Of a stretch of 64,000 nt of DNA, positions 2,967 through 54,111 are shown in pieces. The stretch's first letter is position 1. Every line of letters begins with the position of its first letter. A program made the translations under genes and the position numbers. The notes below the pieces were generated by a model, which made no database searches, was not told the origin of the DNA, and saw nothing but the letters and a program-made list of their open reading frames with translations. The DNA comes from Patescibacteria group bacterium (GTDB taxonomy: Bacteria > Patescibacteriota > JABMPQ01 > JAQVVF01), in NCBI GenBank assembly GCA_028699085.1, contig JAQVVF010000005.1, positions 79-64,078 on the forward strand. Direction: 5' to 3'.

Positions 2967-2971
2967 AAATT

Positions 2972-5428: not shown

Positions 5429-5430
5429 CT

Positions 5431-12814: not shown

Positions 12815-12887
12815 CGGGCCGGACGGGACTTGAACCCGCGACCTTCTCCGTGACAGGGAGACGTGAACTCCGCTTCACTACCGGCCC
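12815..12887 (-). tRNA. tRNA-Asp (GTC)
   Basis: Cloverleaf with anticodon loop CTGTCAC, GGTTCAAGTCC T-arm and 7-bp acceptor stem GGGCCGG/CCGGCCC. No encoded CCA. Confidence 0.85.
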
Positions 12888-12927
12888 AAATTTATTTCTC
12901 AATGGTTTGCATCACAGATTATATCAA

Positions 12928-13001
12928 TAGCAGGGGACGGATTCGAACCGTCGACCGCCACTTTATGAGTGTGGTGCTCTAACCAACTGAGCTACCCTGC
13001 C
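12928..13001 (-). tRNA. tRNA-Met (CAT), elongator type. Could alternatively be tRNA-Ile2 (lysidine).
   Basis: Anticodon loop CTCATAA, D-arm GTAGCTCAGTTGGTTAGAGC and T-arm GGTTCGAATCC. The anticodon stem lacks the three G-C pairs of an initiator. Confidence 0.75.
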
Positions 13002-13090
13002 TCAAAACAAATAACTAAATTATAAATTAAAAATGACAAAATTTAGAATCGTAAATTTTTCATTTATAATTTAGTTATTTTTAATTCAAA

Positions 13091-13164
13091 ATTGCGGGGG
13101 GCGGATTTGAACCGCCGACCTTCAGGTTATGAGCCTGACGAGCTTCCAAGCTGCTCTACCCCGC
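13091..13164 (-). tRNA. Initiator tRNA-fMet (CAT)
   Basis: The sequence CGCGGGGTAGAGCAGC...GGCTCATAACC...GGTTCAAATCCGCCCCCCGCAA closely resembles bacterial tRNAfMet, including a C1:A72 mismatch. Confidence 0.85.
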
Positions 13165-13605
13165 GATAATACGTATATTATATATTAAACAATAAAAAAA
13201 GCAAGTTCACTTGCTCCTATCGATTATTGATGCAATATAAAATTATTTAGGTCCGAAAAAATATTTTAATAACGGCAAAATAGCATAAAAAATAAATGCC
13301 AGAATTGCCACTAAAATAAGATAAACTCTCAAAATTTTTGCTTCTTCTAACATTTGATCCAAAGTCTAATTACATAAATCAAAGTAAACAACAAAACAAT
13401 TGTCGTGCATGCAAAAAATAATAGTAGTTTTTCTGTTAATTCCATGACTTTAGTGATTAGTAAATAAGTAATTAGTAAGTAGTAAGTCATCTATATTATA
13501 AATAATATTTAAAAAGATGGCAACCTTTTAATTAATGATAATTCTTGTTAAACTGATAGAGAGCGATAACTAGTTACTAGTCACTTATTTACTAATTACA
13601 AAAAT

Positions 13606-21649: not shown

Positions 21650-22981
21650 CTATTGTTCCAAAACCATTGAATTTGTTTCATCAGCTCCTCGATTAGACAT
21701 TGCCTGCAAGAAAATTCTCATTGCGAGAAGTTGCTTGCTAGGCGCCAGAGAGTTATAATAGGTCCGCCAAGCCATGCTTTGCTGATCAGTACCGCGAATT
21801 GAAGCGATCAATTCGATCTCTTCTCGCATTTCCTGTTGATTATCAAGCATCTGGCCGACAAACTTGTCTTTGCGCTCTTCAATCAAATCTTCAGCAATCA
21901 TGATCAAAACATCCAAAGCAACTTCATCAGAAGTGATGTACAAACAGAAGTCTCTGTTATCATTATAGATTGCAGAATCATCCAACTCTGGATAGCACGC
22001 CTGCAATCTTTTTTGAATTTCTGTTGTATCAAGATGTTCAGGTGTTTTGTAGTCATCATGGTAAATCACCAGCTGGATTCGCTCGCGGTGCTTCGTGATG
22101 ATACAATCGACCTGCTGCTTGCCATCGAGATAAGGTGGCTTGCCGAAAAAGATCCGAGCAGTCTGTCCGTTTACTCCGGAATCGCTGAAGTCATGGTAGT
22201 ACAGACGAACTCCAAAGAGGGTCTTGTATGTACCTTTTTTGGCTTCATTGAAGTTCCTGCCGAACATCAACCTCACAGACATGAAAGCATCCAAGCTATA
22301 GAACGCTGCGATTACCGCTTCAGCGAAATACGCATCGTCCTTCTTGGTACGCTCGCCGGTCTGCAAGTAGTTGAGTCCTCGGAGCAAATCAGCCAAACCA
22401 TAAAGATTGCGCATCTCGTATTCATTACGACCGTCAAACTCTTTGCCGTAATCTTTGGCATCGATGAATGCAGTCATAACCTTGAGATGCTCATACCTTG
22501 GACTTTCACGCAATCGATCTTCATGCATCCTGAAAACAATGCCAGTAGCAGAAAACCCATTGTCAACGTCGCCGTGATGATCATAGAAAAAAACTCGCTG
22601 TCCGACCTTAAACTTTTCTGGAGTCCAAGGATCAAGCTTCCGGCCAGTGTCAAAGTGGACAATCATCACGCGAGAGCGCTTGACGCCATTTTGCACTGGA
22701 TTCTCAGCGGTTTCATTTTCTTCGTTATCATCATCAGCCTTCTTTACTTCATCAGAAAAAGGAATCCAACGATCTTGATCAGTGTGAAAAAATCCATCCT
22801 GCAGATATTCTTCGCCATTCTTGACAAACAGCAAACGAATTCTTGCATCTTTCCAAGACAATCCAAATGCTTCACAAAACATATACATTGCACAAGAAAC
22901 ATCGCGGTCAGGCAACTGATGCCCAACAAAAAGGAGATAATCAAGATGCAAAAAATAAAACAAATCCTTCTTTGTCACCAT
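21650..22981 (-). CDS. Hypothetical protein, probably horizontally acquired
   Basis: 443 aa when started at the ATG at 22979..22981, which is preceded by AGGAGGA. The ORF-track TTG start at 23032 is less likely. GC content is about 45%, against a ~30% background. No recognised domain. Confidence 0.5.
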   Translation of the reverse strand: MVTKKDLFYFLHLDYLLFVGHQLPDRDVSCAMYMFCEAFGLSWKDARIRLLFVKNGEEYLQDGFFHTDQDRWIPFSDEVKKADDDNEENETAENPVQNGVKRSRVMIVHFDTGRKLDPWTPEKFKVGQRVFFYDHHGDVDNGFSATGIVFRMHEDRLRESPRYEHLKVMTAFIDAKDYGKEFDGRNEYEMRNLYGLADLLRGLNYLQTGERTKKDDAYFAEAVIAAFYSLDAFMSVRLMFGRNFNEAKKGTYKTLFGVRLYYHDFSDSGVNGQTARIFFGKPPYLDGKQQVDCIITKHRERIQLVIYHDDYKTPEHLDTTEIQKRLQACYPELDDSAIYNDNRDFCLYITSDEVALDVLIMIAEDLIEERKDKFVGQMLDNQQEMREEIELIASIRGTDQQSMAWRTYYNSLAPSKQLLAMRIFLQAMSNRGADETNSMVLEQ

Positions 22982-23194
22982 CGTGTCCTCCTTCGAAGTC
23001 AATAATTCAGAGTGCTTACTTGCACAGGTCAAAATATATTAGCATATCTTTTTTATTTTGTCAATCAATACGTTATAATATCCCTTAATTAAGCCAAAAC
23101 AGAATATCACATATCCCCAAATTTTCCTTGCAAAATCATCATTATTTGTTATACTAATATTGTTTAGAAAACTCTAATTTTATGTTTAAAAAAT

Positions 23195-25237
23195 ATGGCA
23201 ACTCAGAAAAAAGATAAAAAAGATACGAATTCATACGGTGCTTCTTCAATTGCTGTTCTAAAAGGTCTTGAACCTGTTCGCAAACGTCCTGGTATGTATA
23301 TTGGCGGAACGGGCATTGAAGGTCTTCATCATTTGATTTGGGAAGTTGTTGATAATTCCATCGATGAAGCCATGGCTGGTTATTGTAAAAATATTACTGT
23401 TACATTGCATGAAGGCAATAAAGTTACAGTCACTGACGATGGTCGCGGTATTCCAGTTGAAATCCACAAAGCAACTAAAAAATCAACGCTAGAAACTGTT
23501 TTAACTGTTTTGCATGCTGGTGGAAAATTTGGTGGTGGCGGTTATAAAGTTTCTGGCGGTTTACATGGTGTTGGTGTTTCTGTTGTTAATGCGTTGTCAC
23601 AATATTTAAAAGCTGAAGTTACAAGAGATGGTTATATCTGGGAGCAAGAATATAAAAGAGGAAAGGCGCAAGGTAAAGTCAAAAAAGCAAAGAAAGCAAA
23701 AGGCACAGGTACAGTAATTACTTTTGAGCCAGATCCAGAAATTTTTCCCAAAATAGAATTTGATTGGAAAACAATTGTTACCCATTTGCGTCAGCAAGCT
23801 TATTTAACCAAAGGGGTTAAAATTTCCATAACTGATAAAAGAAAAGGACATGAGTTAGTACCAAATATTCCACGTTCTTTGACTTTTTATTTTGAAGGCG
23901 GAATTTTATCTTATGTAAAGTTTTTGAATCGAACAGAAAAAGTTGTTCATTCAAATCCATTTTATATTGAAAAAGCAAAAGATGATGTTATGGTTGAAGT
24001 TGCATTACAATATACGGAAGAGATCAAGGGCATTGAGATGACATTTGCTAATAACATTTATACTCCAGAAGGCGGTACTCATCTTATGGGCTTTAGAACT
24101 GCTGTGACAAGAGTTATCAATGATTATGCTCGAAAGAATGGTTATCTTAAAGAAAAAGAAGATAATCTAACTGGCGATGACGTAAGAGAAGGACAGACAG
24201 CAGTTGTTTCATTAAAGCTTCCAGATCCTCAATTTGAAGGCCAGACAAAGGCAAAATTAGGTAACTCTGAAATAAGACCAATAGTAAGTTCAATCGTTTA
24301 TGAATATTTTTCACAATTTTTAGAAGAACATCCACAAGACGCGCGTCAAATTATTGCTAAAACTTTATTAGCTTGCAAAGCTAGATTAGCAGCTAAGGCA
24401 GCTAAAGAAACCGTTATTCGTAAAGGCATTATGGAAGGATTGACCTTGCCAGGAAAACTAGCTGATTGCTCATCTAGAAAGCCAGAAGAATCAGAATTAT
24501 ATATCGTCGAGGGTGACTCCGCTGGAGGTTCTGCAAAACAAGGACGTGATAGAAATTTTCAAGCCATTCTTCCTTTACGCGGTAAAATTTTAAATGTTGA
24601 AAGAGCTAGAATTGATAAGATGTTATCTTCCAAAGAAATCAAAGCTTTAATTATTGCCATGGGCATGGGAGTAGGGGAAGAAAAAGAAGTTGAAAAGATG
24701 CGTTATCACCGAATCATCATCATGACTGATGCTGATGTCGACGGCGCTCACATTAGAACATTGCTATTAACTTTTTTCTATCGTTATTATTCAGAAATTA
24801 TCGACAAGGGCTATCTATATATTGCCCAGCCGCCATTATATCGAATTGAAAAAAATAAAAAGGTCAACTATGCTTATACTGATCAAGATAAAGAAAGATT
24901 ATTAAGTCAATTTGAAAAAGAAATTAGCAAGAAACCTAAAAAAAGCAAAATTGAAAAAGTTGGATTTATTGTCAAAGAATTAGAAGATGCAGAAACAGCT
25001 GGTGAAGAAAAAATCGCTGGTGTTAGCATCCAACGTTACAAAGGCTTAGGCGAAATGAATCCAGAACAGCTTTGGGAAACAACAATGGATCCAAAAAATC
25101 GTGTTATGCTTCAAGTCAAAGTTGAAGATGCAGCCAAGGCTGATGAGACTTTTGATATTCTAATGGGCAATGAAGTCGAACCAAGAAAAAGGTTTATCCA
25201 GACACATGCAGTAAAGGTCAAAAATTTGGATATATAA
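23195..25237 (+). CDS. gyrB: DNA gyrase subunit B
   Basis: GHKL ATPase (EVVDNSIDEAMAG), Toprim (EGDSAGGSAK) and C-terminal tail. 680 aa. Confidence 0.95.
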   Translation: MATQKKDKKDTNSYGASSIAVLKGLEPVRKRPGMYIGGTGIEGLHHLIWEVVDNSIDEAMAGYCKNITVTLHEGNKVTVTDDGRGIPVEIHKATKKSTLETVLTVLHAGGKFGGGGYKVSGGLHGVGVSVVNALSQYLKAEVTRDGYIWEQEYKRGKAQGKVKKAKKAKGTGTVITFEPDPEIFPKIEFDWKTIVTHLRQQAYLTKGVKISITDKRKGHELVPNIPRSLTFYFEGGILSYVKFLNRTEKVVHSNPFYIEKAKDDVMVEVALQYTEEIKGIEMTFANNIYTPEGGTHLMGFRTAVTRVINDYARKNGYLKEKEDNLTGDDVREGQTAVVSLKLPDPQFEGQTKAKLGNSEIRPIVSSIVYEYFSQFLEEHPQDARQIIAKTLLACKARLAAKAAKETVIRKGIMEGLTLPGKLADCSSRKPEESELYIVEGDSAGGSAKQGRDRNFQAILPLRGKILNVERARIDKMLSSKEIKALIIAMGMGVGEEKEVEKMRYHRIIIMTDADVDGAHIRTLLLTFFYRYYSEIIDKGYLYIAQPPLYRIEKNKKVNYAYTDQDKERLLSQFEKEISKKPKKSKIEKVGFIVKELEDAETAGEEKIAGVSIQRYKGLGEMNPEQLWETTMDPKNRVMLQVKVEDAAKADETFDILMGNEVEPRKRFIQTHAVKVKNLDI

Positions 25238-26425: not shown

Positions 26426-26971
26426 ATGTTTTATCTAATTTTTCAAGCGCTTTATTTCATATTACCTGCTGGAATCGCTAACATGGCTCCAGTTTTTGCA
26501 AAAAAGATTAATTTCTTAAATATTCCTGTTGATTTCGGAAAAAGCTTTCGTGGTCAAAGAATTTTTGGTGATCACAAGACTTGGCGTGGATATTTTTCTG
26601 CAATTATAATTGGTGTGATCGTTTCTGGCATTCAAGCTTATCTATATTTCAGTTTTGAATTCTTTCAATCCTTGACAATCTTCCCATTTAGAGAGTATAA
26701 TTTTATACTCTTCGGTTTTTTGTCAGCATTAGGTGCGATGATCGGAGATACAGTTAAAAGTTTCTTTAAACGTCAAGCAAATGTGCAGCCAGGTCAAAAG
26801 TTTATTCCTTGGGATCAAATTGATTTTATTCTCGGTGCATTAATCTTTATTTCATTCTATTTTCGTCCAAACTGGCTAGTTTACGTAATCTTGTTGGTCC
26901 TTGTGCCGTTTCTCCATGTTTTAATTAATAGAATCGGATTCTGGCTAGGTATTCACAAGACAAAATGGTAG
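26426..26971 (+). CDS. CDP-archaeol synthase-like membrane protein (CarS/DUF46 family CTP-transferase)
   Basis: 181-aa polytopic membrane protein with GDHKTWRG and GDTVKSFFKRQ...PWDQIDF motifs, which resemble the CarS family. Confidence 0.6.
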   Translation: MFYLIFQALYFILPAGIANMAPVFAKKINFLNIPVDFGKSFRGQRIFGDHKTWRGYFSAIIIGVIVSGIQAYLYFSFEFFQSLTIFPFREYNFILFGFLSALGAMIGDTVKSFFKRQANVQPGQKFIPWDQIDFILGALIFISFYFRPNWLVYVILLVLVPFLHVLINRIGFWLGIHKTKW

Positions 26972-27524: not shown

Positions 27525-28112
27525 ATGTTTATAAGGGAAATAAAAAAGTATTCAGATAATATTTTACCGCTTAAGTTTTATAAATTCTTAGAGCGAATAG
27601 GGTTGTCTCCAAACAAGCTTACCCTTTTCGCTCTTTTTTTTAAAATTTCGGTCCTTTATTTTTTCTATAACGGGCAAATTGTTCTCGGAGGAATATTTAT
27701 TGCTTGCGATTATTTTTTTGATTATTTAGATGGCACAATGGCAAGAAGATTGGACAGAGTTACTCCATTTGGTACATATTATGATACAGTTCTAGACAGA
27801 TTTTTCAGAACTGCAGGTTGGCCACTCTCATTGGCATTTGGCAGTATAATAACTTTCAAAATTGCAGCTCTTCTTATTGCTTTCAATTTACTCTTGATTT
27901 TCTCTTCAAGTGTGGTAGAATCATATAAATTGCGTCACTTCCCATTTATGTTGAATGTTTTTTATCTCATACCGTATGGCGCATTATTAAATCAAGTCGA
28001 GCTAGCTGCAACATTAGAAGCAATAGTTGCATTTATACTGCTAATAACTAATACAATTACAATAATTGTTTTAAATTTTAGAAATAATAGTGGAAGTCCA
28101 GCACATAAATAG
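27525..28112 (+). CDS. CDP-alcohol phosphatidyltransferase family membrane protein
   Basis: Perfect signature D-G-x2-A-R-x8-G-x3-D-x3-D (DGTMARRLDRVTPFGTYYDTVLD). Multi-TM. 195 aa. Confidence 0.75.
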   Translation: MFIREIKKYSDNILPLKFYKFLERIGLSPNKLTLFALFFKISVLYFFYNGQIVLGGIFIACDYFFDYLDGTMARRLDRVTPFGTYYDTVLDRFFRTAGWPLSLAFGSIITFKIAALLIAFNLLLIFSSSVVESYKLRHFPFMLNVFYLIPYGALLNQVELAATLEAIVAFILLITNTITIIVLNFRNNSGSPAHK

Positions 28113-29049: not shown

Positions 29050-29649
29050 TTAGGGTGCATTTTGTGTTTGTGATCTGATTAAATTAACAAATTCTTGGAT
29101 AGGTATATACATAATTCTTAAACCATTGAATTCTTTCAGAAAGGGCTGAATTTTTTCGTTTTCCATCCAAAAAGGTATCCAAAATTGTTTATTGCCATCA
29201 TTGATTTCTCTCAAGCAATAGAAAAGTCTTACAAACAATTCGCAAGCGCGAAAGATTCTACTCTCCATGCAATTTTCTTTTTGAATATCATAAATTAAAA
29301 GCAGTTTTTCTTGAAAATCAGCAGGTAAAAAGATAATCGCTTCTAAGAATTTTTCTCGCTCCAATCTTTCATCAGCTTCAGTTTTGTCCGGTTCTTGAAT
29401 ATCCCCAAAGCCATCCATTGCCTCTCCAAAATCATGAATTGTTCCCAAATCAGAAACAATTTCGCCATTAAACTTAACATCAGGATCGTATTTTTTGATC
29501 ATCGCTTTTGCCAGTTGAATAACAATGCCAAGCTTTATCGTATGCGCGGAAACATTTTCAAGATGTAATTTAGGAATATTTTTCCATCTTTGTTCATCTT
29601 GCAAGCCTTGTACAATTCTTACTAAACCTTCTTCAATCCGATGTGGCAT
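29050..29649 (-). CDS. HD-domain phosphohydrolase (YfbR-like 5'-deoxynucleotidase candidate)
   Basis: H...HD...D pattern (SAHT...IHDFGE...D). 199 aa. AAGGAGGA SD upstream. Confidence 0.6.
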   Translation of the reverse strand: MPHRIEEGLVRIVQGLQDEQRWKNIPKLHLENVSAHTIKLGIVIQLAKAMIKKYDPDVKFNGEIVSDLGTIHDFGEAMDGFGDIQEPDKTEADERLEREKFLEAIIFLPADFQEKLLLIYDIQKENCMESRIFRACELFVRLFYCLREINDGNKQFWIPFWMENEKIQPFLKEFNGLRIMYIPIQEFVNLIRSQTQNAP

Positions 29650-29826
29650 CCTCTTCCTCCTTTTCCCTCTTGTTTTTTTCTTAATTTTTTCTTAAAATAA
29701 AAAGAACACTCAAAATATCGATGATCAAAAAAAATGACAACGATTAGTTAAATTTAACATTTATTGAATAAGGAATCAATAATATAGTTATTTTAAATTT
29801 TTCGCTTTAAATTTTAATTTTGAAAT

Positions 29827-31266
29827 ATGTCAAACAAAAACAGCTGTCAAATTTACGTGTTGGAGGGATTAACGCCAGAAGTCCGAGCAGTCACTTTTGC
29901 CAAGTGTTCGCGTTCAGACAAATCTTTCAGGGAAATTGCCGCAGGCCTAACTGCCGAGAATTCTTCAAAATTCCATGAAAAATGGGTTGTTGGTTATGGC
30001 CATTCTTCAGTTGCTGAGCATGCTCCAATTTCGATTGCTATGGAAAATATTTCACTTCTTGCAGTAGAAGCAATCGAATCAAACCGTTTGGCTTCATATA
30101 CTGAAAAATCTTCTCGTTATCAAATTTATGATGAAGATCGAGTTTATTATCCAAAAGAATTTAAGCAAGATAAAGCGATCGACAAATTATTTCGCGATAC
30201 AATAAAATTACAGTTCGCTTTATATAAAAAAAGCATTAAGCCAATTCAAGAAATTATCTATCAAGAAAATCCAAAAGAAAAAGGCGAAGATCAAAAAGGT
30301 TATGAAGGCAGAGTAAGATCAAAATGGATTGATATGTGTCGTTATCTTTTGCCAAATGCTTGTTTTGCAAATTTAGGTATGACTGCAAATGCTAGAACTT
30401 ATGAAAATGCTTTAGTCAAATGGTTCTCGCATCCTTTATCTGAAGTACAAGAAATTGCGAAACAAGTAAAAAGAGAAGCTCTAAAAATTACTCCAACCTT
30501 AGTTAAATACGCTGATCCAAATAGCTATTTAATTGATTCTTACAAAATCTTGCCTAAAAAAGTAAAAACAATTTTAGGTGCAGAGAAAAAATATCTAGGC
30601 AAAGAAATTTTAGTTGAGTTAGTTGATTTTGATAAAGATGCTGAAAGAAAAGTATTAGCTGCGGTTATCTATCAATTCTCGAATATTCCATACAAAAAGG
30701 CTTATCAAAAAGCCAAAAGTTTAAAGAAAACTGACAAAGAAAAATTATTAGATAATATTCTAAAAAGAATCGGCAAGCATGACAAGCCATTACGTGCTTT
30801 AGAGCTTCCGTATTTTACTTTTGATTGCTTGATTGATCAAGGTGCTTATGCTGATTTAAAGAGAAATCGAATCATGACTCAACTACCACAAACTGTTACT
30901 ACAAAACATGGCTATTTTATTCCAAGAGCTTTTGTTTTGGCAGGTTTAGAAAAAGAATATAAAGAAGTTATGGAAGCAACAGATAAAGCCTTTAAAATAA
31001 TTTCCAAAAAGTTTCCTAATGAAGCAGGCTACATCGCTACAAAATCATATGGCCGTAGATTTTTGATGAAAATGAATCTTCGTGAATTATACTATTTCTG
31101 CTATTACAGAGGTGCAAATCCAGGTGGCCATGTTTCGTATCGTTTTGTCGGTACAAAAATGTATGAGCAAGCTTCTAAAAAATTTCCAACTTTAATGAAA
31201 TATCTACCATACATTTTTGATATGAATAGCAAAGAATTAAATAAATATTTTGAATATATTGCTTAA
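29827..31266 (+). CDS. ThyX-like (flavin-dependent thymidylate synthase family) protein, double length
   Basis: GHSSVAEH and NRLASYTEKSSRY resemble ThyX HxSVxEH and the RHRxxSxxxxSxRY motif (with H replaced by N). 479 aa, against ~250 aa for ThyX. Immediately upstream of tmk. Confidence 0.55.
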   Translation: MSNKNSCQIYVLEGLTPEVRAVTFAKCSRSDKSFREIAAGLTAENSSKFHEKWVVGYGHSSVAEHAPISIAMENISLLAVEAIESNRLASYTEKSSRYQIYDEDRVYYPKEFKQDKAIDKLFRDTIKLQFALYKKSIKPIQEIIYQENPKEKGEDQKGYEGRVRSKWIDMCRYLLPNACFANLGMTANARTYENALVKWFSHPLSEVQEIAKQVKREALKITPTLVKYADPNSYLIDSYKILPKKVKTILGAEKKYLGKEILVELVDFDKDAERKVLAAVIYQFSNIPYKKAYQKAKSLKKTDKEKLLDNILKRIGKHDKPLRALELPYFTFDCLIDQGAYADLKRNRIMTQLPQTVTTKHGYFIPRAFVLAGLEKEYKEVMEATDKAFKIISKKFPNEAGYIATKSYGRRFLMKMNLRELYYFCYYRGANPGGHVSYRFVGTKMYEQASKKFPTLMKYLPYIFDMNSKELNKYFEYIA

Positions 31267-31271
31267 ATTGT

Positions 31272-31904
31272 ATGAACAAAAATAGTTTTATTACTAATCC
31301 ATTTAAAGGCATATTTATTGCCTTTGAAGGATTAGATGGATCTGGGTTATCAACTCAAGTTGATTTATTAAATAAATATCTCAACAAACAAGGCTACAAA
31401 AGTTTTGCTACCAAAGAGCCAACCAATAATATAATTGGTGGTTTGATTCGAGGACTTCTCACTCATATCTGGAAAGCCAGCAATGAATGTTCGCAATTAT
31501 TGTTTACTGCAGATCGCGCCTTGCATTTAGAGAAAGAAATTATTCCAGCCTTAAAAAAGAAAAACATTATTATTACTGATCGCTATTTTTTCTCTACCGT
31601 TGCCTTTGGTTCGCTAAACATCAGAGATTTAGACTGGCTTGTTTCGCTTAATCAACATTTTATCTTGCCGGATTTAATTTTCTTAATTAAAGTTCCGCCA
31701 AAAGAATGTGTTAAGAGAATAAAGTCTTCAAGATTTCATAAAGAATTGTTTGAGGAAGAGATTAAGCTTAAAAAAATTTGGCGGACATATAACAAATTAG
31801 CTAAAATATTTCCGAATATTCACATTATTGACGGAAATCGTGATAAGAAAAAAGTTTTCGAAGAAATTTTTGAAATTGTAATAAAAAAATTAAAAAAGAA
31901 ATAG
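31272..31904 (+). CDS. tmk: Thymidylate kinase
   Basis: P-loop FEGLDGSGLSTQ, DRY motif and lid region. 210 aa. Confidence 0.85.
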   Translation: MNKNSFITNPFKGIFIAFEGLDGSGLSTQVDLLNKYLNKQGYKSFATKEPTNNIIGGLIRGLLTHIWKASNECSQLLFTADRALHLEKEIIPALKKKNIIITDRYFFSTVAFGSLNIRDLDWLVSLNQHFILPDLIFLIKVPPKECVKRIKSSRFHKELFEEEIKLKKIWRTYNKLAKIFPNIHIIDGNRDKKKVFEEIFEIVIKKLKKK

Positions 31905-31960: not shown

Positions 31961-33457
31961 ATGCAACAAAAATTAGAAACAATCATCGGATTAGAAATTC
32001 ATGTCCAGCTCAAAACAAAGTCCAAAATGTTTTGTTCATGTGATAATAATGCAGAAGGCAAGCAACCTAATTCTTTAGTATGTCCTGTTTGCATGGCTCA
32101 TCCTGGGACTTTACCAGTTATCAACCGCCAGGCAGTTGAATGGACAGTTATGACTGGTCTTGCTTTGAATTGTGATATCCCAGAAAATTCAAAATTTGAT
32201 CGCAAAAATTATTTTTATCCAGATCTTCCAAAGGGATATCAGATTTCTCAATACGATCAGCCTTTATGCATGGGAGGATATTTCGATATTTTAGTTAACA
32301 AACAAAACAAAAGAATTAATTTGGAAAGAATTCATCTTGAAGAAGATGCAGGAAAATTAACTCATTCTAAAAATATAGGTGCAAGTCTTGTTGATTATAA
32401 TCGAGCAAGTACTCCATTGATGGAGATTGTAACCAAGCCCGATTTTAGAAGTCCACTAGAAGCTAAAATATTTTTGCAAGAACTTCGTAATTTAGTTCGC
32501 TATATTAATGTTTCAGATGCTGATATGGAAAAGGGCCATCTCCGTTGTGACGCCAATATATCTATGAGACCTATTGGGACAACAGAATTATCTGCAAAGA
32601 CAGAATTAAAAAACATGAATTCATTCAAAGCAGTTGAAAAAGCTTTGACCTATGAAGTTAATCGTCAAACAAAGCTTTGGCAAGAAAATTGTCAGCCAAA
32701 ATATTCTGCAACCAGATTATGGAATGATGATCAGGAGCAAACAATCGAAATGAGAACAAAGGAAGCATCACATGATTATCGCTATTTCCCAGAGCCAGAT
32801 TTACCGCCTTTAAAATTAGATCAAGAATGGGTCAAAGATCTAAAACAGAAATTACCTGAACTTCCGCAAGCTAAAAAAAATAGATTTATTAAGCAATTTG
32901 GCTTATCAGAAAAAGAAGTTAATCTATTAATTTCAAACCGATTAATCTCTGAATATTTCGAAGATGTTCTAACGGAAACAAGAGCTTGGGTTGATGATTT
33001 AAAACAGAAAGAAGATGATTCGGAAAAGACTTACAAGGAATTAGTAAAAGTAGTTTCTAATTGGTTAACGTCAAAATTGTTTGCTTTATTAAATTCAGAA
33101 AAAATTTCAATTTCAAATTGCAAGATAACACCAGAAAATTTTGCTGAACTTTGCGCCATGCTTTATACTAACAAGATTTCTTCATCAGCAGGACAGCAAG
33201 TTCTAAAAATAATGTTTGATAAAGGTTCTGATCCATCTCAAGTTGTTGAAGAGCAAAATCTAGGTCAAGTATCTGACGAAAAAGAATTAGATACGATTTT
33301 AGATAAGTTAATTGCTGAAAATCCAAAACCAGTTGCTGATTTCAAAGCTGGCAACAAAAATGCTTTGCAATTTTTTATCGGGTTAGCCATGAAAGAAACA
33401 AAAGGCAAGGCAAATCCAAAAGTTGTTATTGATATTCTGACCAAAAAGCTATCTTGA
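31961..33457 (+). CDS. gatB: Asp-tRNA(Asn)/Glu-tRNA(Gln) amidotransferase subunit B
   Basis: MQQKLETIIGLEIHVQLKT...; GatB/YqeY C-terminal domain. 498 aa. Confidence 0.95.
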   Translation: MQQKLETIIGLEIHVQLKTKSKMFCSCDNNAEGKQPNSLVCPVCMAHPGTLPVINRQAVEWTVMTGLALNCDIPENSKFDRKNYFYPDLPKGYQISQYDQPLCMGGYFDILVNKQNKRINLERIHLEEDAGKLTHSKNIGASLVDYNRASTPLMEIVTKPDFRSPLEAKIFLQELRNLVRYINVSDADMEKGHLRCDANISMRPIGTTELSAKTELKNMNSFKAVEKALTYEVNRQTKLWQENCQPKYSATRLWNDDQEQTIEMRTKEASHDYRYFPEPDLPPLKLDQEWVKDLKQKLPELPQAKKNRFIKQFGLSEKEVNLLISNRLISEYFEDVLTETRAWVDDLKQKEDDSEKTYKELVKVVSNWLTSKLFALLNSEKISISNCKITPENFAELCAMLYTNKISSSAGQQVLKIMFDKGSDPSQVVEEQNLGQVSDEKELDTILDKLIAENPKPVADFKAGNKNALQFFIGLAMKETKGKANPKVVIDILTKKLS

Positions 33458-33639: not shown

Positions 33640-34665
33640 ATGGCAACCGACAATATGCCTCAGATGTTTTTGGAAGATGTTGGTAGTTTGGTTCACTCGC
33701 ATGACGGTCAAAATGTTTGGTTGATCAAGGATTTAGATCAGCGCGAGGAATTTGAAGAATACATGTTGCCTCATGATATTTACGTCGTTGATTTTCCTGC
33801 GCTAGGAGTTGGCCAAAGATTTCTGTTAAGTCGTCATCTTTGCGGACCTGATAAGTTTTTCATGCTTCAGCAGATTGGTCATGCAATGGCAAAAATCTGC
33901 AAAAGAACGGGAATGTTTGATGGTGAAAAGCTGGCACAATTCATTATTCTTTACGGTGGTGAAGCCTACAACATGCATTTCTGTCAGCCACCTTTGGTTG
34001 ATGGAATCATGATTGATTCGACTTATATCAAATATGAACGAGTAGAGGATAGTACTCAGCAAAATGGTTTTAGGATCGAAAAACTCGCATTCTCCGGAAA
34101 ATGGTGGCAGGACAATATCTGGCTTTGTCTTGAAGAATGCGTTGCTTCTGGCAGTACAGTTGCGCATTTTGCAAAAGAAGGATTCGTAAATCATAAACCC
34201 AAGAAGCTTTTTATTTTTCCAGCTTGCGGTAGTTTCTTTGGCATTCAAGGAATCTATCAGGCTTGTTTGGAAAACGGAGTCGAGTTTGTTCCAGTATTCA
34301 ACTCTGCCTTGATTGATGTTGCGCCTGAAGGCTTGAAGCTTCCATATACTGATCTTGGCCTGCGTCCTCGTACGATCATGACTCGTGAATTCTGTGCTGC
34401 CGCGCGCCACCGCTATCAAGACACAAGCCTTTGTTTTGTGGGTGATATTGGAGATTCAATTCATCGTACCAAAAGATATATTATGGAAACTCTTGATGAC
34501 ATGCGATTGATTGGCTTTGATTTTGAAAGAGAGGATTGGAGCCGCTGGAATCCCAATGTTTTCTCCGAATATTTTCGCCAAAAGCTTGCAGAAGTATTTC
34601 CAGAAACGAGTCAACATTTTGAAACATTCTTATTCCGCGATTCTAGATTTCTGCTTTCCAAATAA
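33640..34665 (+). CDS. Hypothetical protein with a PRTase-like motif, probably horizontally acquired
   Basis: 341 aa. AAAGGAGGA SD. ~42% GC. IWLCLEECVASGST resembles the type I phosphoribosyltransferase signature but does not match it exactly. Confidence 0.45.
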   Translation: MATDNMPQMFLEDVGSLVHSHDGQNVWLIKDLDQREEFEEYMLPHDIYVVDFPALGVGQRFLLSRHLCGPDKFFMLQQIGHAMAKICKRTGMFDGEKLAQFIILYGGEAYNMHFCQPPLVDGIMIDSTYIKYERVEDSTQQNGFRIEKLAFSGKWWQDNIWLCLEECVASGSTVAHFAKEGFVNHKPKKLFIFPACGSFFGIQGIYQACLENGVEFVPVFNSALIDVAPEGLKLPYTDLGLRPRTIMTREFCAAARHRYQDTSLCFVGDIGDSIHRTKRYIMETLDDMRLIGFDFEREDWSRWNPNVFSEYFRQKLAEVFPETSQHFETFLFRDSRFLLSK

Positions 34666-38377: not shown

Positions 38378-39211
38378 ATGCCAAACGGAGTTCCTCCAAC
38401 AAATTTACCTACAAATGATCAAAAAAATTCAGCTAATGAACCACCAAAAACAACATTCAAGCCATCTCCTGATAGAGTTAAAAATTTTCGTAAACAAATG
38501 GGAAAAATAAATCCAGAACCTGGAATGCCAAGTCGTCCAACACCACCAACACCACCGACTCCATCAGCACCTCAATCTCCAAAACCACAGCCACCAATGC
38601 CTCCAAAACCAACAACTCCAGAACCTCCTCAATTTGCACCAAAAGCACCTACACCAGCTCCAATGACGCCAAAGCCAACTCCTCCTCCGACTCCAGCACC
38701 AAAACCTAAAGCTCCAGTTCCTCCTCAGCCAAAAAGTCCAGAAATGCCAGAGCAAGCAGACGGTCCTTCAATTGAACAAGTTGAAAAGAAAAATTTAGTT
38801 GTTAAAATAATTATTTTAATTGTTGTTGTTGCTGCTTTAGCTGGATTAGTTTTGGGTGGAGTTTTTGCTTATAATAAATGGCTTAGTCCGTCTTCAAAAA
38901 CAAATACTACTAATACAAATTTGAATACTAATACGCAAGTTATTCCAGAAAACATAATTATTAATGAACAAATTAAAATCAAAGATTCAGATGGTGATAC
39001 AATTACTGATGAATGGGAAATAAAATATGGCCTTGATCCTAATGATCCAGCTGATGCAAATAAAGATAACGACAAAGATAAGCTAATAAATATCGAAGAA
39101 TTCAAATACAAAACAAATCCGAATAGCCAAGACACAGATGGAGATACATTTAGCGATTACATTGAAATACAAAAGGGCTTTAATCCAAACGGTGCCGGTA
39201 AATTAAAATAG
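38378..39211 (+). CDS. Pro/Thr-rich single-pass membrane protein with C-terminal thrombospondin type-3-like Ca-binding repeats
   Basis: (PTPP)n low-complexity region, TM helix (IIILIVVVAALAGLVLGGV) and DxDxDG repeats (DSDGDTITD, DTDGDTFSD). Confidence 0.5.
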   Translation: MPNGVPPTNLPTNDQKNSANEPPKTTFKPSPDRVKNFRKQMGKINPEPGMPSRPTPPTPPTPSAPQSPKPQPPMPPKPTTPEPPQFAPKAPTPAPMTPKPTPPPTPAPKPKAPVPPQPKSPEMPEQADGPSIEQVEKKNLVVKIIILIVVVAALAGLVLGGVFAYNKWLSPSSKTNTTNTNLNTNTQVIPENIIINEQIKIKDSDGDTITDEWEIKYGLDPNDPADANKDNDKDKLINIEEFKYKTNPNSQDTDGDTFSDYIEIQKGFNPNGAGKLK

Positions 39212-39214
39212 TAT

Positions 39215-39739
39215 ATGCAAAATTCTGGATTTAACAAATCAGCACTGTCATCAAGCAATCAGCAAAATCAAAAACCAAATCTAGAATTCCAATATTTACA
39301 ACAAAACAACAAGAAACATTCGATTCTTGTTGTTTTACTGATTATATTTTTAATTATTATTCTCGGTATTATTTGCGTAATTGCTTATGATTTTTTTCAA
39401 AAAAACAAGCAAGCAAATCTAACTGCAGATTTATATAATCAAGATATCGATGGCGATGGGTTGACGACAATTGAAGAGCTAAAATATGGTACTGACCAAA
39501 ATCAATATGATACAGATTTTGATAAAATGCCAGATGGCTGGGAGACAAGAAACAATTTAGATCCAAAAGATTATCTTGATGCAGTTAAGGATAATGATGA
39601 AGATGGCTTAACAAATCTTCAAGAGCTGCAATATAATTCCAACCCGAATATTAAAGATACTGATAATGATGGTTTTAACGATGGCGATGAAGTAAAAAAC
39701 AATTATAATCCTAATGGTGAAGGTAAAATCATTAAATAA
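39215..39739 (+). CDS. Membrane-anchored thrombospondin type-3-repeat protein, paralog of the upstream gene
   Basis: N-terminal TM plus DIDGDGLT, DNDEDGLTNLQELQY and DTDNDGFNDGDE repeats. The C-terminus aligns with that of 38378..39211. Confidence 0.5.
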   Translation: MQNSGFNKSALSSSNQQNQKPNLEFQYLQQNNKKHSILVVLLIIFLIIILGIICVIAYDFFQKNKQANLTADLYNQDIDGDGLTTIEELKYGTDQNQYDTDFDKMPDGWETRNNLDPKDYLDAVKDNDEDGLTNLQELQYNSNPNIKDTDNDGFNDGDEVKNNYNPNGEGKIIK

Positions 39740-41117
39740 AAACTTTAAAAATAAATTTATTTATGCCAAAATTATTTTAATTTTAGGCATAGTTTTGTTT
39801 TTACCAAAAATTTCATTTGCTAAAATTCCATTCAATATTTTGGTCAGCACTGGTTTCGGTGTTAATCCTCAATTAAAAGAATTTTCTAATACTGGAAAAG
39901 TTGCCAGCTATTTATCAAATATAAAACAATTACCAAAAAACAATAAAGGCATTAACGTTGCTTCTGGCGATGTTGATGGTGATGCTATTGACGAGATAAT
40001 AATCGCTCAAAGAGCTGGCGGAAATTCAGAAGTTTTAGTTTTTGAGAAAAACGGCAAATTTAAAAAACCAATTTTGAATCCGTATCCTAATTCAGTTACT
40101 GGAGTAAATATTGCTGCAGGTGATGTTGATAAAGATGGCAAAGACGAAATTATTACAGTTCCTGCAGAAGGTGGAATTGCACAAGTTAAAATATATCGCT
40201 TCAATAAAAAACAAGAAATTATCAAAGAATTCAAGGCTTTTAGTGAAGATAAATGTGGAGGATCTGTTGCCTCAGGAGATATTGATCATGACGACAAAGA
40301 TGAAATAATTGTTGGCAATGGACCAAAATGTCCTCCAAAAGTTCGCGTTTATGAATCTAACGGCACTAGATTGCCATTAGAGTTTTATGCTTTTAATCCA
40401 AATTTTTTGGGCGGAATTGATGTTGCTGCCGGCGATGTTGATAAAGATGGAATTGATGAAATTGGCACTTGCCAATCTCAGCAGCAAGCTTGGTGCAAAA
40501 TTTACAAATATAAAAATTATACTCCTTTAATTGGTTCATGGCTTGCCTATAGCAATTTTGAAGTTGGCGCTAGAATTGATTTTGCTGATTTGGATTCTGA
40601 TGGCCGCGATGAAGTAATTACTGGTACGGCTCATGGCACTCCGCAAGTCCGTTTTTTTGAAGCATCAGGCGCTCCAATCAATATTAATTTTTACCCATTT
40701 CCAAAAAATTATGATTCCGGTATTGATGTCGCTCCATTTTTCGCTAACAACAAATCACAGGAAAAAGTCATTTATGTTGAAGATGGCGACAGTATTTATT
40801 TAACTGATAGTAGGGAAATGCGCTATATCGGTGTTAATGCTCCGGAAGTTGGCAAAAAGTATTATGAGCAAGCAATTAATCTAAACAAAAGGTTAGTTGA
40901 ACACAAAAATATAACTCTAGAATATGATGTTGATCGCGAAGATCATATTGGCCGAGATTTAGCTTATGTCTTTGTTGGAAAAAAATTTATTAACAAAATT
41001 ATAGTCGCCAAAGGCTTAGCCAAGGTTGATACTTATAAGCCAAATGTAAAATATCGATCAGTATTTAAAAAAGCCCAGCGTCGAGCTCAAAGATTGCACC
41101 TTGGAATGTGGAAGTGA
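39714..41117 (+). CDS. Secreted FG-GAP/VCBS-repeat beta-propeller protein fused to a staphylococcal-nuclease (SNase/thermonuclease) domain
   Basis: Signal peptide (...LPKISFA|K). At least five GDVDxDGxDEII FG-GAP-type repeats. C-terminal SNase-like region (IGVNAPE..., RDLAYVFV, ...QRLHLGMW). Confidence 0.65.
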   Translation: MVKVKSLNKNFKNKFIYAKIILILGIVLFLPKISFAKIPFNILVSTGFGVNPQLKEFSNTGKVASYLSNIKQLPKNNKGINVASGDVDGDAIDEIIIAQRAGGNSEVLVFEKNGKFKKPILNPYPNSVTGVNIAAGDVDKDGKDEIITVPAEGGIAQVKIYRFNKKQEIIKEFKAFSEDKCGGSVASGDIDHDDKDEIIVGNGPKCPPKVRVYESNGTRLPLEFYAFNPNFLGGIDVAAGDVDKDGIDEIGTCQSQQQAWCKIYKYKNYTPLIGSWLAYSNFEVGARIDFADLDSDGRDEVITGTAHGTPQVRFFEASGAPININFYPFPKNYDSGIDVAPFFANNKSQEKVIYVEDGDSIYLTDSREMRYIGVNAPEVGKKYYEQAINLNKRLVEHKNITLEYDVDREDHIGRDLAYVFVGKKFINKIIVAKGLAKVDTYKPNVKYRSVFKKAQRRAQRLHLGMWK

Positions 41118-41159: not shown

Positions 41160-42374
41160 TTAATCAATCAATTTCTTATAGCAAGGTATCGAATAAATAG
41201 ATCCGCAAATCAAAATAGGTAAATTATTTTTCAAAGCCAAATCAATGGCTTTTTTGATTGCTAAATTTAATTCCATGGTTTGTCCATTTTTATAATATTT
41301 TTTTAGTTGAACGGTACTGTACATCAAATCCATTTTTAGTTTAGGAAAAATAATTTCTAAAATTATTGGTTTCAAAATTTTCAAATTTTGTTTTGCATCT
41401 TTAGTTATTTTGGCAGAAAACAAAATGATTGCTTTTTTATATTTCAAATCTTTAAAAGTTTTTACCAAAGTTTTAAATCCGCCAGGATTATGCGCGCTAT
41501 CAATAATAATCGTTATTTTATTTTTACCAAGCTTTTTAAATCGCACATCGAATCTAGTTGGCCATTTAACTTTTAAAAATCCATTTTTAATTGCTTGTTC
41601 AGAAATTTTGTATTTCTCTTTTAGTTCATTTATCGCACTCAAGACAATGCCAGCATTTCGCCTCTGATGCTCACCTAAAAGTTTTAGTTTATACTTATTG
41701 CTTAATTTATCAGTCTTTATCAATTTAGCCTTTTTTTCTTTACAAACTTTTTTAATTACATTTAACGTTGTTCCTCGGTTCGAGGTAACGACAACAGAAT
41801 CAGACTTTATAATACCTGCTTTCTCTTTAGTAATCTTTGCAATTGTGTTACCTAAATATTCTTTATGGTCAATTGAGATATCGGTGATTGCAGAAATTCC
41901 AAGATTTAAAACATTAGTCGCATCTAATCTTCCGCCAAGACCAACTTCAAAGACTACAAAGTCAACTTTTTCGTCTCTAAAATATAATATTGCAATAACC
42001 GTTAAAATTTCAAACCAAGTTGGCTGATCATTTATCTCTTTTTTAACTTTTTTTACATAGGGCAAAATATATTCAAAATATTTCGCTAATCTTTTTTCAG
42101 AAATATCTTGATAATCAATCCTAATTCTTTCCGTCATTTTAAAAATATGTGGGGAAGTGAATAGTCCGACTTTGTATCCAGCTTGTGTCAAAATGCTCTG
42201 TAATGAGGCACTGACAGATCCTTTGCCATTTGTTCCAGCAACATGCACGCCTTTTAAATTATTTTCCGGATTACCAAGTTTCTCCAGCAATTTTTCAATT
42301 CTTCTCAGATCTAACCACGCCTTCTTTTTAGGAGGTGTGTCAAAAAGCTTTTCGTATTTTGTTAGGATTGACAT
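41160..42374 (-). CDS. folC: Folylpolyglutamate synthase/dihydrofolate synthase
   Basis: Mur-ligase family P-loop VHVAGTNGKGSV. 404 aa. Confidence 0.85.
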   Translation of the reverse strand: MSILTKYEKLFDTPPKKKAWLDLRRIEKLLEKLGNPENNLKGVHVAGTNGKGSVSASLQSILTQAGYKVGLFTSPHIFKMTERIRIDYQDISEKRLAKYFEYILPYVKKVKKEINDQPTWFEILTVIAILYFRDEKVDFVVFEVGLGGRLDATNVLNLGISAITDISIDHKEYLGNTIAKITKEKAGIIKSDSVVVTSNRGTTLNVIKKVCKEKKAKLIKTDKLSNKYKLKLLGEHQRRNAGIVLSAINELKEKYKISEQAIKNGFLKVKWPTRFDVRFKKLGKNKITIIIDSAHNPGGFKTLVKTFKDLKYKKAIILFSAKITKDAKQNLKILKPIILEIIFPKLKMDLMYSTVQLKKYYKNGQTMELNLAIKKAIDLALKNNLPILICGSIYSIPCYKKLID

Positions 42375-50801: not shown

Positions 50802-53800
50802 CTATTGAGCTATTTTTGTAAATTCTGCGCTATTTAAAAATTCATTCTTGATGTCCTGTATTGATTTTCCTGATTGCTTCCAATAATTCACGCCTGAAAT
50901 ATCTGCAGCTCTTGCATACAAAGTTTCATATAATTCTTCGATTTGTGCTTCTTTGTCTTTGATTGCTTTTAATCTATCGTCATACTCTTTGCTCATAGCC
51001 AGCTCTTTTCTCATTTCTTTTGCATTAGGCAATGCAACCAATTTTTCTATACCTGTTTCGTCACCGCCTCGCTTTAATACTATTTGATATGCTAGGTCAG
51101 CTTCAGCTATCTTCTTTTCTTTTGGCTGCATTTTATTTATATTACCAACAGCTTCTGGACTGACCGAAATTGCAAATTTAGCTCCTGAAATATCAATCTG
51201 TTTATTGTCATTTCTTTCTATTTGCTTTGTCCAGTAATCAACTCCATTTTTATCAACAAATTTCTTTATATTATCTTTATATATTCTATCATGAATGCGT
51301 CGATACAAATTTTCGACAGCTTTTTTTGTACCCAATTTTGCTGCCGTTGCTTGCAGCCTCTTATCAAATTCTTTATATTTTCTGTCATTAAGCAACGTAA
51401 AATGTACCCCTCTCAAACTCAGAGGCTCTTGGTTATTTGTCGGTTTGTAGAAAAAATTTGCTCCACCTCCACGCAAACTTTTATCAGGTTGTACATATTT
51501 ATTAACCTGAAAATTATCTCCAAAGACTAAATTATAATAATAGAGAATTGTCTGAAATCTATTCAGCGTTTTAAAGTCACCAATATCTGAACATCTATCA
51601 GATAAGCTAACTTGGAAATAATATGGTTTTTGTCCAGCCACGTAACCTTGATCATTTTTGTCTGAAAATTCGCCGCCTTTTAGATTTTCAAGCACTGTAT
51701 AATATTTATTTTCATTATTTTCATAGTAGGTTTTTGCGTTCTGCAAATTTCCGCCGACTGCAATGCCATTATTATTAATCACAGCATCAGTAGTATATTT
51801 AAAATCTAGATCTTTATTTTTGTATTCATCCTTGCCAGTTTCCCATTTAATAACAACTCTGTCAGCTCCTCGCTGTATTAACTGAGGATTTTTTAATAAA
51901 TCAGCATCATTGCTCGGGCAAAACGCTTGATCTTCGCTTAATGCAGTAACTTTTATTGGAGCAGCATTAGCTAAAGGATGAACAAAAGTAAGCTTTGCTT
52001 CATATTCTCCAGGGTTTTGATATACGTGTTCAGGATTTGCTACATCTTGCAATGTTGTACCATCACCAAAATCCCAAGTATATGGTACGCCTGTCAGATC
52101 AATATCTTTATATAAATTCTCAAAACTAAAACTGACCGTTAGAGGAGCCTTGCCAGCATTTGGGTTGGCATTGATTTTTACTCCACTGGCGTATATCCAT
52201 GGCCCATTTACATATTTTGTATTTCCATCAGCATCTCTGACTGCCAAAGCTGTACTATAAATCCCAGAGTTTTTATATTTAAAAGTAGGGCTTGATTCAT
52301 CGCTATCAAGCAATTGGTACTCAGAAATCGGCTCCTGATTATACATTTCATCAGATTTTGCGAATTCCCAGTCATATTTATAAGGTCCTTTTCCGCCCGT
52401 TACTGTTGCCGTAAATTTAACATCCATTGGCGCAAGTCCTTGAGTTGGTGTCGCATCAATTGACACATTCAATGCACCCAAATCAACTTCTCCTCCGGGT
52501 GGTTCTGGCAGAGGTTCATCTCCAAGTTCGCCAGTTTTTACGGTAAAATCAAGTCGATCTAAATATATACTAGTTGGCAACGTAACCATCTCCTTTGATA
52601 CAGAGGTATTTGCAGGTACTGCGTTTGGGTCATCCGGAGTAATAATTTGAATATTCGAAATGCCTGGATTTAATGCCTTTATTTTTGCTCCTTGATAACA
52701 TTTTGTCCCAAAACCACCGCTACTGCAATCAACTTCTACAGTATCTAGTTTAATTAAATTTTCAGCAAAATTAGTTTTTGTATCTTCCTTCTGTGCTTGT
52801 TTAAAATCAATCGTGTCAGATTGTGGAATTGTAAAAAAATTTACATCCTCACTACCTTTAAAAGAAACAATATTTTCCAGAGGTTTATTATATTCAACTC
52901 CATTAGGATTACCAGTATTAGTATTAAATTCATATCCTAATGCATATTTTAAACCGCTTGCAGTCTGTTGAAAAATATCCTGATTAAAGTTATAAACAAA
53001 ATTATAATTAATATCTCTTACCAAATCCACTTTTCGCCAAGTCGCTCCTTTGTCAAAGCTAAAAAATAATTTTAAATCACTTGCTTTAATAGAGTCTCGA
53101 TATTCAGCAAGGGGATAATATATTCTATCTAGCCACAATTTACCTTCAATTCCTTTTATGCTTTTTCCGCTAATATTTATTTCATTTGCACCAGCATGAG
53201 TTTCTGATAATTCTTTAGAAAGTATTAATTTATTTGTTAATTTTTCTTCAAAAAATGGTTTTGCAGTTCCGAGCCCAGCATTAGTTATGTTATTAAAAAC
53301 TGCTTCGTCACTTGTTAGGTCGCTGTCTACGGTAATTTCTAAAGAATTACTTGGTATTCCGCAAATTCCAGCACTAATTGTCGATTTTCCTTTAAAAACC
53401 GGTATGATGCTGCCATTGGCTGTCATTAAAAGCACTTTAGGTTGACTCGATTTCCATCTTAAAAGATCAGACCAAGTAATTGAATTATAATTAACAAAAT
53501 CATCGCCAATACTAGATCCATCAAAATCTCCAGTATCTGGATTAATTGGCTTGCCATTTATGCTAATTTGAATTGCGTTTCTTAGTCTATCAATGCCAAA
53601 TCTTAACCAAGAAGATTGGACGCTATTATCAACAATTGTTACTTTCTGAGGGTTTGGAGTGATTTCAATTGTATCAATTTTGTTTGCTAGAGAAGTAGAG
53701 CATAAATAATTTGTTGATTCTGTATTAAGGTCTTTACTAAAACTATTTTCGTTACTTGCTAGCTCAATATTATTATATTCTTCCGTTACATTTTGAAAAT

Positions 53801-54098: not shown

Positions 54099-54111
54099 TT
54101 TTTAAATTTAT

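Follow-up and report, generated by a model that had tools for sequence, protein, structure and literature searches.

Flavin-dependent thymidylate synthase (ThyX) carries out de novo synthesis of thymidine monophosphate (dTMP), it is an antibacterial target, and its textbook active site is shared by three subunits. In ThyX of Mycobacterium tuberculosis (Mtb), subunit A supplies R95-H96-R97, which touch the phosphates and ribityl group of flavin adenine dinucleotide (FAD), with R95 also contacting the flavin and deoxyuridine monophosphate (dUMP), and it supplies R199, a further dUMP contact (PMC6514825). Subunit B supplies the FAD-phosphate contacts S71 and R190, and subunit C supplies R87, the Q103 backbone, S105, R107 and the Y108 lid (PMC6514825). 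These three contributions are referred to below as roles A, B and C. A duplication of the ThyX domain was reported in Chloroflexi by Valas and Bourne in 2009 as an uncharacterised architecture, and the Chloroflexi other than Dehalococcoides were found to have the duplicated ThyX only (PMC3224940). This study was concerned with a ThyX-like protein of 479 amino acids (aa), encoded by an open reading frame (ORF) at 29827-31266 on the plus strand of a 64,000-nucleotide (nt) stretch of Patescibacteria DNA (contig JAQVVF010000005.1, GC content about 32%). This whole stretch is called the window, and the 479-aa protein is called the query. The query is probably a tandem-domain flavin-dependent thymidylate synthase that is co-transcribed with a dTMP kinase and forms a two-chain pseudo-tetramer with two composite active sites.

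Two ThyX folds in one chain

The query was divided into two domains and a linker, with the following coordinates.

29827-31266 (+): tandem thyX gene of 479 aa, taken from the ORF list, with its TAA stop codon at 31264-31266
29827..30534 (+): N-terminal ThyX domain, residues 1-236 (Thy1, 103 bits)
30535..30612 (+): inter-domain linker, residues 237-262, a helix and then a loop whose length varies (from the modeled secondary structure and the alignment)
30613..31266 (+): C-terminal ThyX domain, residues 263-479 and the stop codon (Thy1 at 60.5 bits, AlphaFold2 model, hidden Markov model (HMM) comparison)

The Pfam profile Thy1 (PF02511) matched the whole protein at 159.4 bits, against a gathering score of 24.8, in two stretches. 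Scanned alone, residues 1-238 scored 103.1 bits over profile positions 9-191 of 191 and residues 239-479 scored 60.5 bits over positions 1-191 of 191; as profile matches, both are far beyond chance. BLASTP gave no significant match between the N-terminal and C-terminal halves. This divergence put the halves beyond the reach of BLASTP and called for profile methods, and a comparison of the N-terminal with the C-terminal profile, using 25 homologues, gave a probability of 80% and an E value of 1.5e-5 over 122 columns. This alignment paired S85-N86-R87 of the N-terminal half with R346-N347-R348 of the C-terminal half. Against Mtb ThyX, an HMM of the N-terminal domain scored 78 bits and an HMM of the C-terminal domain scored 44.7 bits, the latter with RHR aligned on RHR.

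The predicted structures agree. The AlphaFold2 model of the full-length protein, computed with 121 sequences, has a predicted local distance difference test score (pLDDT) of 91 and a predicted template modeling score of 0.89, and its strands and helices follow one another in the same order twice along the chain. Residues 251-479 modeled alone gave a pLDDT of 92.2. When this C-terminal model was compared with the PDB by Foldseek, only ThyX structures were matched, and it superposed on Thermotoga maritima ThyX (TM0449) with a template modeling (TM) score of 0.70-0.75 and a root-mean-square deviation of about 3 Å over about 220 columns. The 479-residue protein is two ThyX folds in one chain. The first-pass annotation of the window had described the C-terminal half as a second ThyX-like repeat, had suggested AlphaFold as a check and had named an unrelated C-terminal fold as the result that would speak against it. 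The profile scores, the profile comparison, the confident models and the exclusively ThyX matches of the C-terminal half in the PDB all bear the description out.

The protein is a member of a large double-domain ThyX subfamily that is known and widely annotated but experimentally neglected. Among 5.8 billion proteins, a homology search with the query gave 6,679 matches. The best 120 of these were all 451-499 aa long, with 45-92% identity and 93-100% query coverage, and NCBI or JGI had given many of them the name "FAD-dependent thymidylate synthase" or "thymidylate synthase ThyX". In addition, a HMMER search of 1.84 billion cluster representatives gave 631 clusters (50% identity) at E<1e-30, nearly all of whose listed members were 430-560 aa long. 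In a GTDB set of one genome per species, at least 583 loci with a relative were confirmed. The best 80 of these were mostly from Anaerolineae and other Chloroflexota, and the rest included Patescibacteria, Woesearchaeota and Aenigmatarchaeota. The closest sequence from a GTDB species genome was 51% identical to the query, and a 92% identical relative was found in GCA_964574655.1. A search for an exact copy of the protein gave no match. A second search, started from a 524-aa member (P0146), showed a large subgroup from DPANN archaea. The query shares the characters of the tandem subfamily, namely two Thy1 domains, a length within 460-530 aa and end-to-end alignment with its members. In Anaerolineae, many Patescibacteria and DPANN archaea, the standard thymidylate synthase appears to belong to this family.

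The query had earlier been called atypical. It is not, since thousands of homologues of 460-530 aa have the same architecture, and the duplication has been in print since 2009. The related suggestion of a structural novelty holds in one respect: the PDB contains no tandem ThyX, as all matches there by sequence or fold are chains of at most 270 residues, and the family is structurally uncharacterised. However, the architecture itself was already known, and the novelty was overstated.

Division of the ThyX motif and linkage with tmk

Residues were counted in 136 aligned sequences, which were the query and 135 representatives of 50%-identity clusters (30-52% identity), and the Mtb ThyX residues were mapped onto both domains by alignment. 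Four stretches of the query are needed for what follows.

29998..30021 (+): GHSSVAEH, residues 58-65, equivalent to Mtb G68-H75 (H69, S71, E74)
30079..30120 (+): SNRLASYTEKSSRY, residues 85-98, in which RHR is degenerate (S-N-R) and the SxxxxSxRY dUMP loop after it is intact
30862..30870 (+): R346-N347-R348, the RHR equivalent by alignment (RHR in 125/136)
31108..31110 (+): R428, equivalent to the dUMP-binding arginine Mtb R199 and T. maritima R174 (Arg in 134/136)

The mapped positions were distributed between the two domains as follows.

Mtb R95 (role A): N-terminal domain Asp (86/136) or Ser (23/136), never Arg, S85 in the query; C-terminal domain R346 (135/136)
Mtb H96 (role A): N-terminal domain variable, N86 in the query; C-terminal domain H347 (125/136), Asn in the query's clade
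Mtb R97 (role A): N-terminal domain R87 (129/136); C-terminal domain R348 (134/136)
Mtb R199 (role A): N-terminal domain K198 (113/136); C-terminal domain R428 (134/136)
Mtb S71 (role B): N-terminal domain S61 (134/136); C-terminal position held by R323 (129/136)
Mtb R190 (role B): N-terminal domain R190 (129/136); C-terminal domain R419 (128/136)
Mtb Q103 (role C): N-terminal domain E93 (134/136); none conserved in the C-terminal domain
Mtb S105 (role C): N-terminal domain S95 (135/136); none conserved in the C-terminal domain
Mtb R107 (role C): N-terminal domain R97 (135/136); none conserved in the C-terminal domain
Mtb Y108 (role C): N-terminal domain Y98 (131/136); none conserved in the C-terminal domain
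Mtb R172 (not among the residues listed in PMC6514825): N-terminal domain R172 (135/136); not retained in the C-terminal domain
Mtb H203, which we take to be an FAD contact from T. maritima H178: N-terminal domain H202 (Ser 63, His 56 of 136); C-terminal domain H435 (124/136)

The dUMP loop is found solely in the N-terminal domain, and the complete RHR and the R199 equivalent are found solely in the C-terminal domain. Thus, as read from the alignment, the ThyX motif is divided across the family, with SxxxxSxRY in the N-terminal domain and RHR in the C-terminal domain. The position of the first RHR arginine in the N-terminal domain holds an acidic or small residue in 136/136 sequences, and the C-terminal loop that follows RHR (349-362) is variable and without a conserved Ser-x-Arg-Tyr. 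The contiguous motif RHRxxSxxxxSxR is absent from either domain and is complete only when both domains are combined. The equivalents of R190 and N188 are kept in both domains, and H59 and S61 are additionally kept in the N-terminal domain. The same division was seen when the family profile was compared with the PDB, where Mtb ThyX was aligned as a chimera, with residues 62-154 on the N-terminal domain and residues 166-234 on the C-terminal domain. The query fits this complementary pattern except for H347N; its C-terminal stretch is R-N-R without a conserved SxR after it.

Both strings quoted earlier for the N-terminal half, GHSSVAEH and NRLASYTEKSSRY (residues 86-98), are present in the protein. 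The second had been read as the RHR motif with His replaced by Asn, which does not describe the N-terminal domain, where the first arginine has been lost as well (S85-N86-R87). A replacement of His by Asn is real, but it is located in the C-terminal domain, at R346-N347-R348. The alignment of active-site residues that had been suggested as a check places every Mtb residue listed in PMC6514825, except Mtb R87, at a conserved position in one or the other domain.

The gene directly downstream of thyX encodes a dTMP kinase, and the two features that follow thyX are these.

31272-31904 (+): tmk, dTMP kinase, 210 aa (TIGR00041, PF02223)
31961..33457 (+): gatB, 56 nt downstream of tmk, functionally unrelated, in a conserved order

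Tmk scored 149.2 bits against TIGR00041 (cutoff 83.25) and 147.4 bits against PF02223. The spacing between thyX and tmk had been given as 1 nt; measured from the thyX stop codon to the tmk ATG at 31272, it is 5 nt. Upstream, the gene for ribosomal protein L1 ends at 29003. The order L1-thyX-tmk-gatB recurs at the locus of the 92% relative (L081), at two loci of 74% relatives (L082 and L083) and at loci L011, L020, L054 and L056. At two further loci, L002 and L070 (the latter from Aenigmatarchaeota), tmk lies upstream of thyX. The nearest relatives with this synteny carry Patescibacteria labels; the name 'Gammaproteobacteria' that some automated records of metagenome-assembled genomes give them is doubtful. 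In total, tmk adjoins thyX in nine related loci. When about 70 Chloroflexi loci were scanned with a small HMM for Tmk, none showed a tmk within about 6 kb of thyX, so the linkage is a feature of the small-genome lineages. Since the tight linkage recurs in related loci, the earlier proposal of a gene pair leading from dUMP to dTMP to thymidine diphosphate (dTDP) is reasonable. As a separate observation, the Tmk homologue of L002 is a 361-aa ORF (4781-5866) upstream of thyX, compared with the usual product of about 210 aa downstream, and it may hold an extra domain.

Proposed assembly and alternative explanations

The split residue pattern suggests a two-chain pseudo-tetramer with two composite active sites. 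The C-terminal domain would take the role of subunit A, with the RHR arginines for flavin and dUMP and the R199-type arginine. The N-terminal domain would take the role of subunit C, with the Ser-x-Arg-Tyr dUMP loop and the equivalents E93 and R172, and it also retains the His, Ser and Arg residues of the subunit B role. Two chains would then bring four ThyX domains together in a pseudo-tetramer, in which a complete site would consist of a C-terminal domain in role A and an N-terminal domain in role C, giving two such sites per dimer and not four. The composite sites would convert dUMP to dTMP using methylene-tetrahydrofolate, FAD and reduced nicotinamide adenine dinucleotide (phosphate) (NAD(P)H), after which dTMP would pass to Tmk to give dTDP. 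We infer the dimer, its two active sites and its enzymatic activity from the sequence, and the two-site model in particular was drawn from the conserved residues and the published subunit roles.

Several observations weigh against this reading. The NCBIfam equivalog model for thyX (TIGR02170) scored the query at 67.2 bits, below its cutoff of 87.9. This model was built on single-domain ThyX, and despite the low score NCBI labels the homologues FAD-dependent thymidylate synthase. In the literature that was searched, no biochemical or structural study of any tandem member was found. The equivalent of Mtb R87 is not conserved in the N-terminal domain (L77 in the query; Ile, Arg or Asn in the family), and position 347 is Asn and not His in the query's clade. 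In addition, the degenerate pockets keep R87, K198, R323, R419 and N417 of the query numbering conserved. Because basic residues (R87, K198, R323 and R419) are conserved there, the incomplete pockets may not be inert, and there may be four sites of two kinds. In a speculative reading that keeps two composite catalytic sites per dimer, the two degenerate pockets would have been repurposed as a dedicated second-nucleotide site, for example for NAD(P)H or for a flavin or adenylate with a structural or regulatory function, and an obligate division of labour would have been fixed by the fusion. Canonical ThyX is without a dedicated second-nucleotide site, because NADPH must compete for the flavin pocket. 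From the conserved residues, such a repurposing is conceivable but unlikely.

It is also quite unlikely that both domain types form working sites, four per dimer, in which non-homologous residues substitute for the missing ones. Under this explanation K198 might replace R199, for example, and another arginine might stand in for R95 and R107. The conservation of R87, K198 and R323 would be accounted for in this way, the β-role residues are kept in both domains (S61, R190 and N188 in the N-terminal domain; R419, N417 and E326 in the C-terminal domain), and 41/136 sequences have some arginine in the C-terminal loop 349-362. However, the loop that should carry Ser-x-Arg-Tyr in such a C-terminal site has no conserved Ser, Arg or Tyr, and the N-terminal site would have to work in 136/136 sequences with an acidic or small residue in place of the arginine that contacts both flavin and dUMP in Mtb ThyX (PMC6514825).

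The remaining explanations concern what the protein is. It could be a ThyX-fold enzyme with another substrate or reaction, such as a PolB-like methylase of uridine monophosphate or dUMP or an enzyme of some other pyrimidine modification, and not the thymidylate synthase of the cell. Its sub-cutoff TIGR02170 score, its identity of 14-20% to characterised ThyX and the presence of PolB (4P5B) among the structural matches are compatible with this, but canonical ThyX structures scored equal to or above PolB, the listed dUMP- and FAD-contacting residues are conserved with the single exception of Mtb R87, and tmk directly follows the gene in nine loci. Also, the duplicated ThyX is the sole reported thymidylate synthase in Chloroflexi other than Dehalococcoides (PMC3224940), which argues for a working thymidylate synthase. 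For these reasons a different reaction is highly improbable. Lastly, a lost stop codon, or an error in sequencing or assembly, could have merged two adjacent thyX genes into one. The unusual length is all that speaks for such an artefact, whereas the same continuous architecture, at 94-100% query coverage, is shared by thousands of sequences obtained independently across many phyla and projects, and the two halves are no more than distant relatives, without a significant BLASTP match. Their distance indicates an ancient fusion and not a recent tandem gene pair, and an artefact is ruled out by the size and breadth of the tandem family.

The window and comparison with known ThyX enzymes

The genes and spacer next to thyX, and the folate gene of the window, are as follows.

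29050-29649 (-): homologue of the YfbR-like HD-domain 5'-deoxynucleotidases, 199 aa (PF12917)
29650..29826 (no strand): AT-rich divergent spacer of 177 bp between the HD gene and thyX (from the sequence)
41160..42374 (-): folC, folylpolyglutamate/dihydrofolate synthase (TIGR01499, 353.5 bits, cutoff 162.65)

The YfbR-like HD family converts deoxynucleoside monophosphates to deoxynucleosides, which is not salvage in the anabolic sense. The HD protein of the window scored 37.8 bits against PF12917 (cutoff 25.9), 30.9 bits against the equivalog NF003009 (cutoff 122) and 25 bits against E. coli YfbR (2PAQ). Most of the catalytic residues of E. coli YfbR align with it (W22, H36, H72-D73, E76 and D82 with YfbR W19, H33, H68-D69, E72 and D77). 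It differs from YfbR in its score below the NF003009 cutoff and in the fourth metal ligand, D137, which aligns to Glu. The gene was found only in the window and at the locus of the 92% relative (L081); it is absent at L082, L083 and the other syntenic loci, and in the 74% relative thyX comes directly after L1. Transcribed from the other strand and not conserved at the locus, the HD gene is placed outside the thyX operon and treated as a lineage-specific neighbour. A sigma-70-like match (10/12) on the plus strand at 29754-29783 lies in the spacer, as a consensus match only. The first-pass annotation had described a divergent HD phosphohydrolase followed by the ThyX-like protein and had named the region a nucleotide-salvage cluster. 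The HD gene does not precede thyX within an operon, as it lies on the minus strand and points away from thyX across the 177 bp. The salvage label does not fit: the family to which the HD protein belongs dephosphorylates deoxynucleoside monophosphates, and ThyX makes dTMP de novo. A salvage operon that includes the HD gene is ruled out by strand and by lack of conservation.

Nearly all ORFs of at least 120 aa in the 64-kb window were scanned against Pfam or NCBIfam, and no thyA, folA, dut, dcd or second thyX was found among them. For thyA and folA, this is the absence that had been proposed as a check, within the window. The presence of folC suggests, as context only, that the organism handles and polyglutamylates folates, which ThyX needs. 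For the window as a whole, the gene content suggests an organism that would make its own dTMP and dTDP and would handle folate.

Several other features of the window were noted. The ribosomal-protein cluster nusG-L11-L1 (25821-29003) has two genes of lipid synthesis interspersed in it: a gene of the CarS-like CDP-archaeol-synthase family (26426-26971; PF01864, 110.8 bits) and a CDP-alcohol phosphatidyltransferase gene (27525-28112). This order is repeated in L081, L082 and L083. Directly after gatB, a 341-aa ORF (33640-34665, +) gave no match to Pfam, NCBIfam or PDB sequences; it is 342 aa long at the same position in L081, and the phosphoribosyltransferase-like strings ECVASGST and VGDIGDS were recognized in it by eye. 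GyrB is 680 aa long in the window (23195-25237) and 1,119 aa long, with an intein (PF14890), in GCA_964574655.1 (L081, 863-4222). Upstream of gyrB, two long ORFs overlap on opposite strands (21650-23032, -, 460 aa; 21836-23005, +, 389 aa) with a local rise in GC to 0.387, and neither has a Pfam match. Since the relatives have a minus-strand gene of about 440 aa upstream of gyrB, also without a Pfam match, the real gene of the pair is probably the one on the minus strand.

A type I restriction-modification set at 453-7845 (+) includes an HsdR-like helicase and an 818-aa fused methylase/specificity subunit, whose gene is followed by that of an 804-aa AAA_13 ATPase. A cluster of three transfer RNA genes lies at 12815-13165 (-). 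Large probable surface proteins are encoded at 50802-57015 (-) and 38378-41117 (+), among them proteins of 1,098 aa and 967 aa with PKD and DUF4214 domains and two TSP3-repeat proteins. At 39714-41117, an FG-GAP protein is fused to a staphylococcal-nuclease domain, and this nuclease could scavenge external nucleic acid.

The closest described systems can be compared with the query at three distances. ThyX of Chlamydia trachomatis (CT632) is reportedly about 529 aa long, double the usual length, and was reportedly characterised biochemically by Griffin et al. (2005, J Biol Chem); it is a candidate member of the tandem family. Chlamydial ThyX was omitted from early phylogenies for lack of sequence identity (PMC6171736). 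No chlamydial sequence was present among the matches listed in the homology searches and the P0146 search or among ten cluster representatives of 520-530 aa.

The domain-duplicated ThyX proteins of Chloroflexi, Patescibacteria and DPANN archaea have the same layout of two Thy1 domains in 460-530 aa and the same split motif as the query, which is 43-52% identical to these relatives over 94-100% of its length. The query's clade differs from them in the C-terminal domain, where it has RNR (N347) and the others have mostly RHR. In contrast to the roughly 70 Chloroflexi loci, the query has its tmk in the same transcription unit.

Canonical ThyX is homotetrameric and has the same fold as each half of the query (TM about 0.7), as represented by T. 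maritima TM0449 (1O26), Mtb (2AF6, 3GWC), Helicobacter pylori (3N3Y) and the virus PBCV-1 (2CFA, 4FZB). The query is 14-20% identical to the solved enzymes. Because its two domains together hold the listed catalytic residues but for Mtb R87, the chemistry is presumably the same. A natural fused ThyX fixes which domain gives which residues and is thus a clean system for studying the place of reductant binding and the number of sites, out of four, that the enzyme requires. Where canonical ThyX has one domain per chain, a contiguous motif and four active sites, the query has two domains per chain, a non-contiguous motif and two predicted complete sites.

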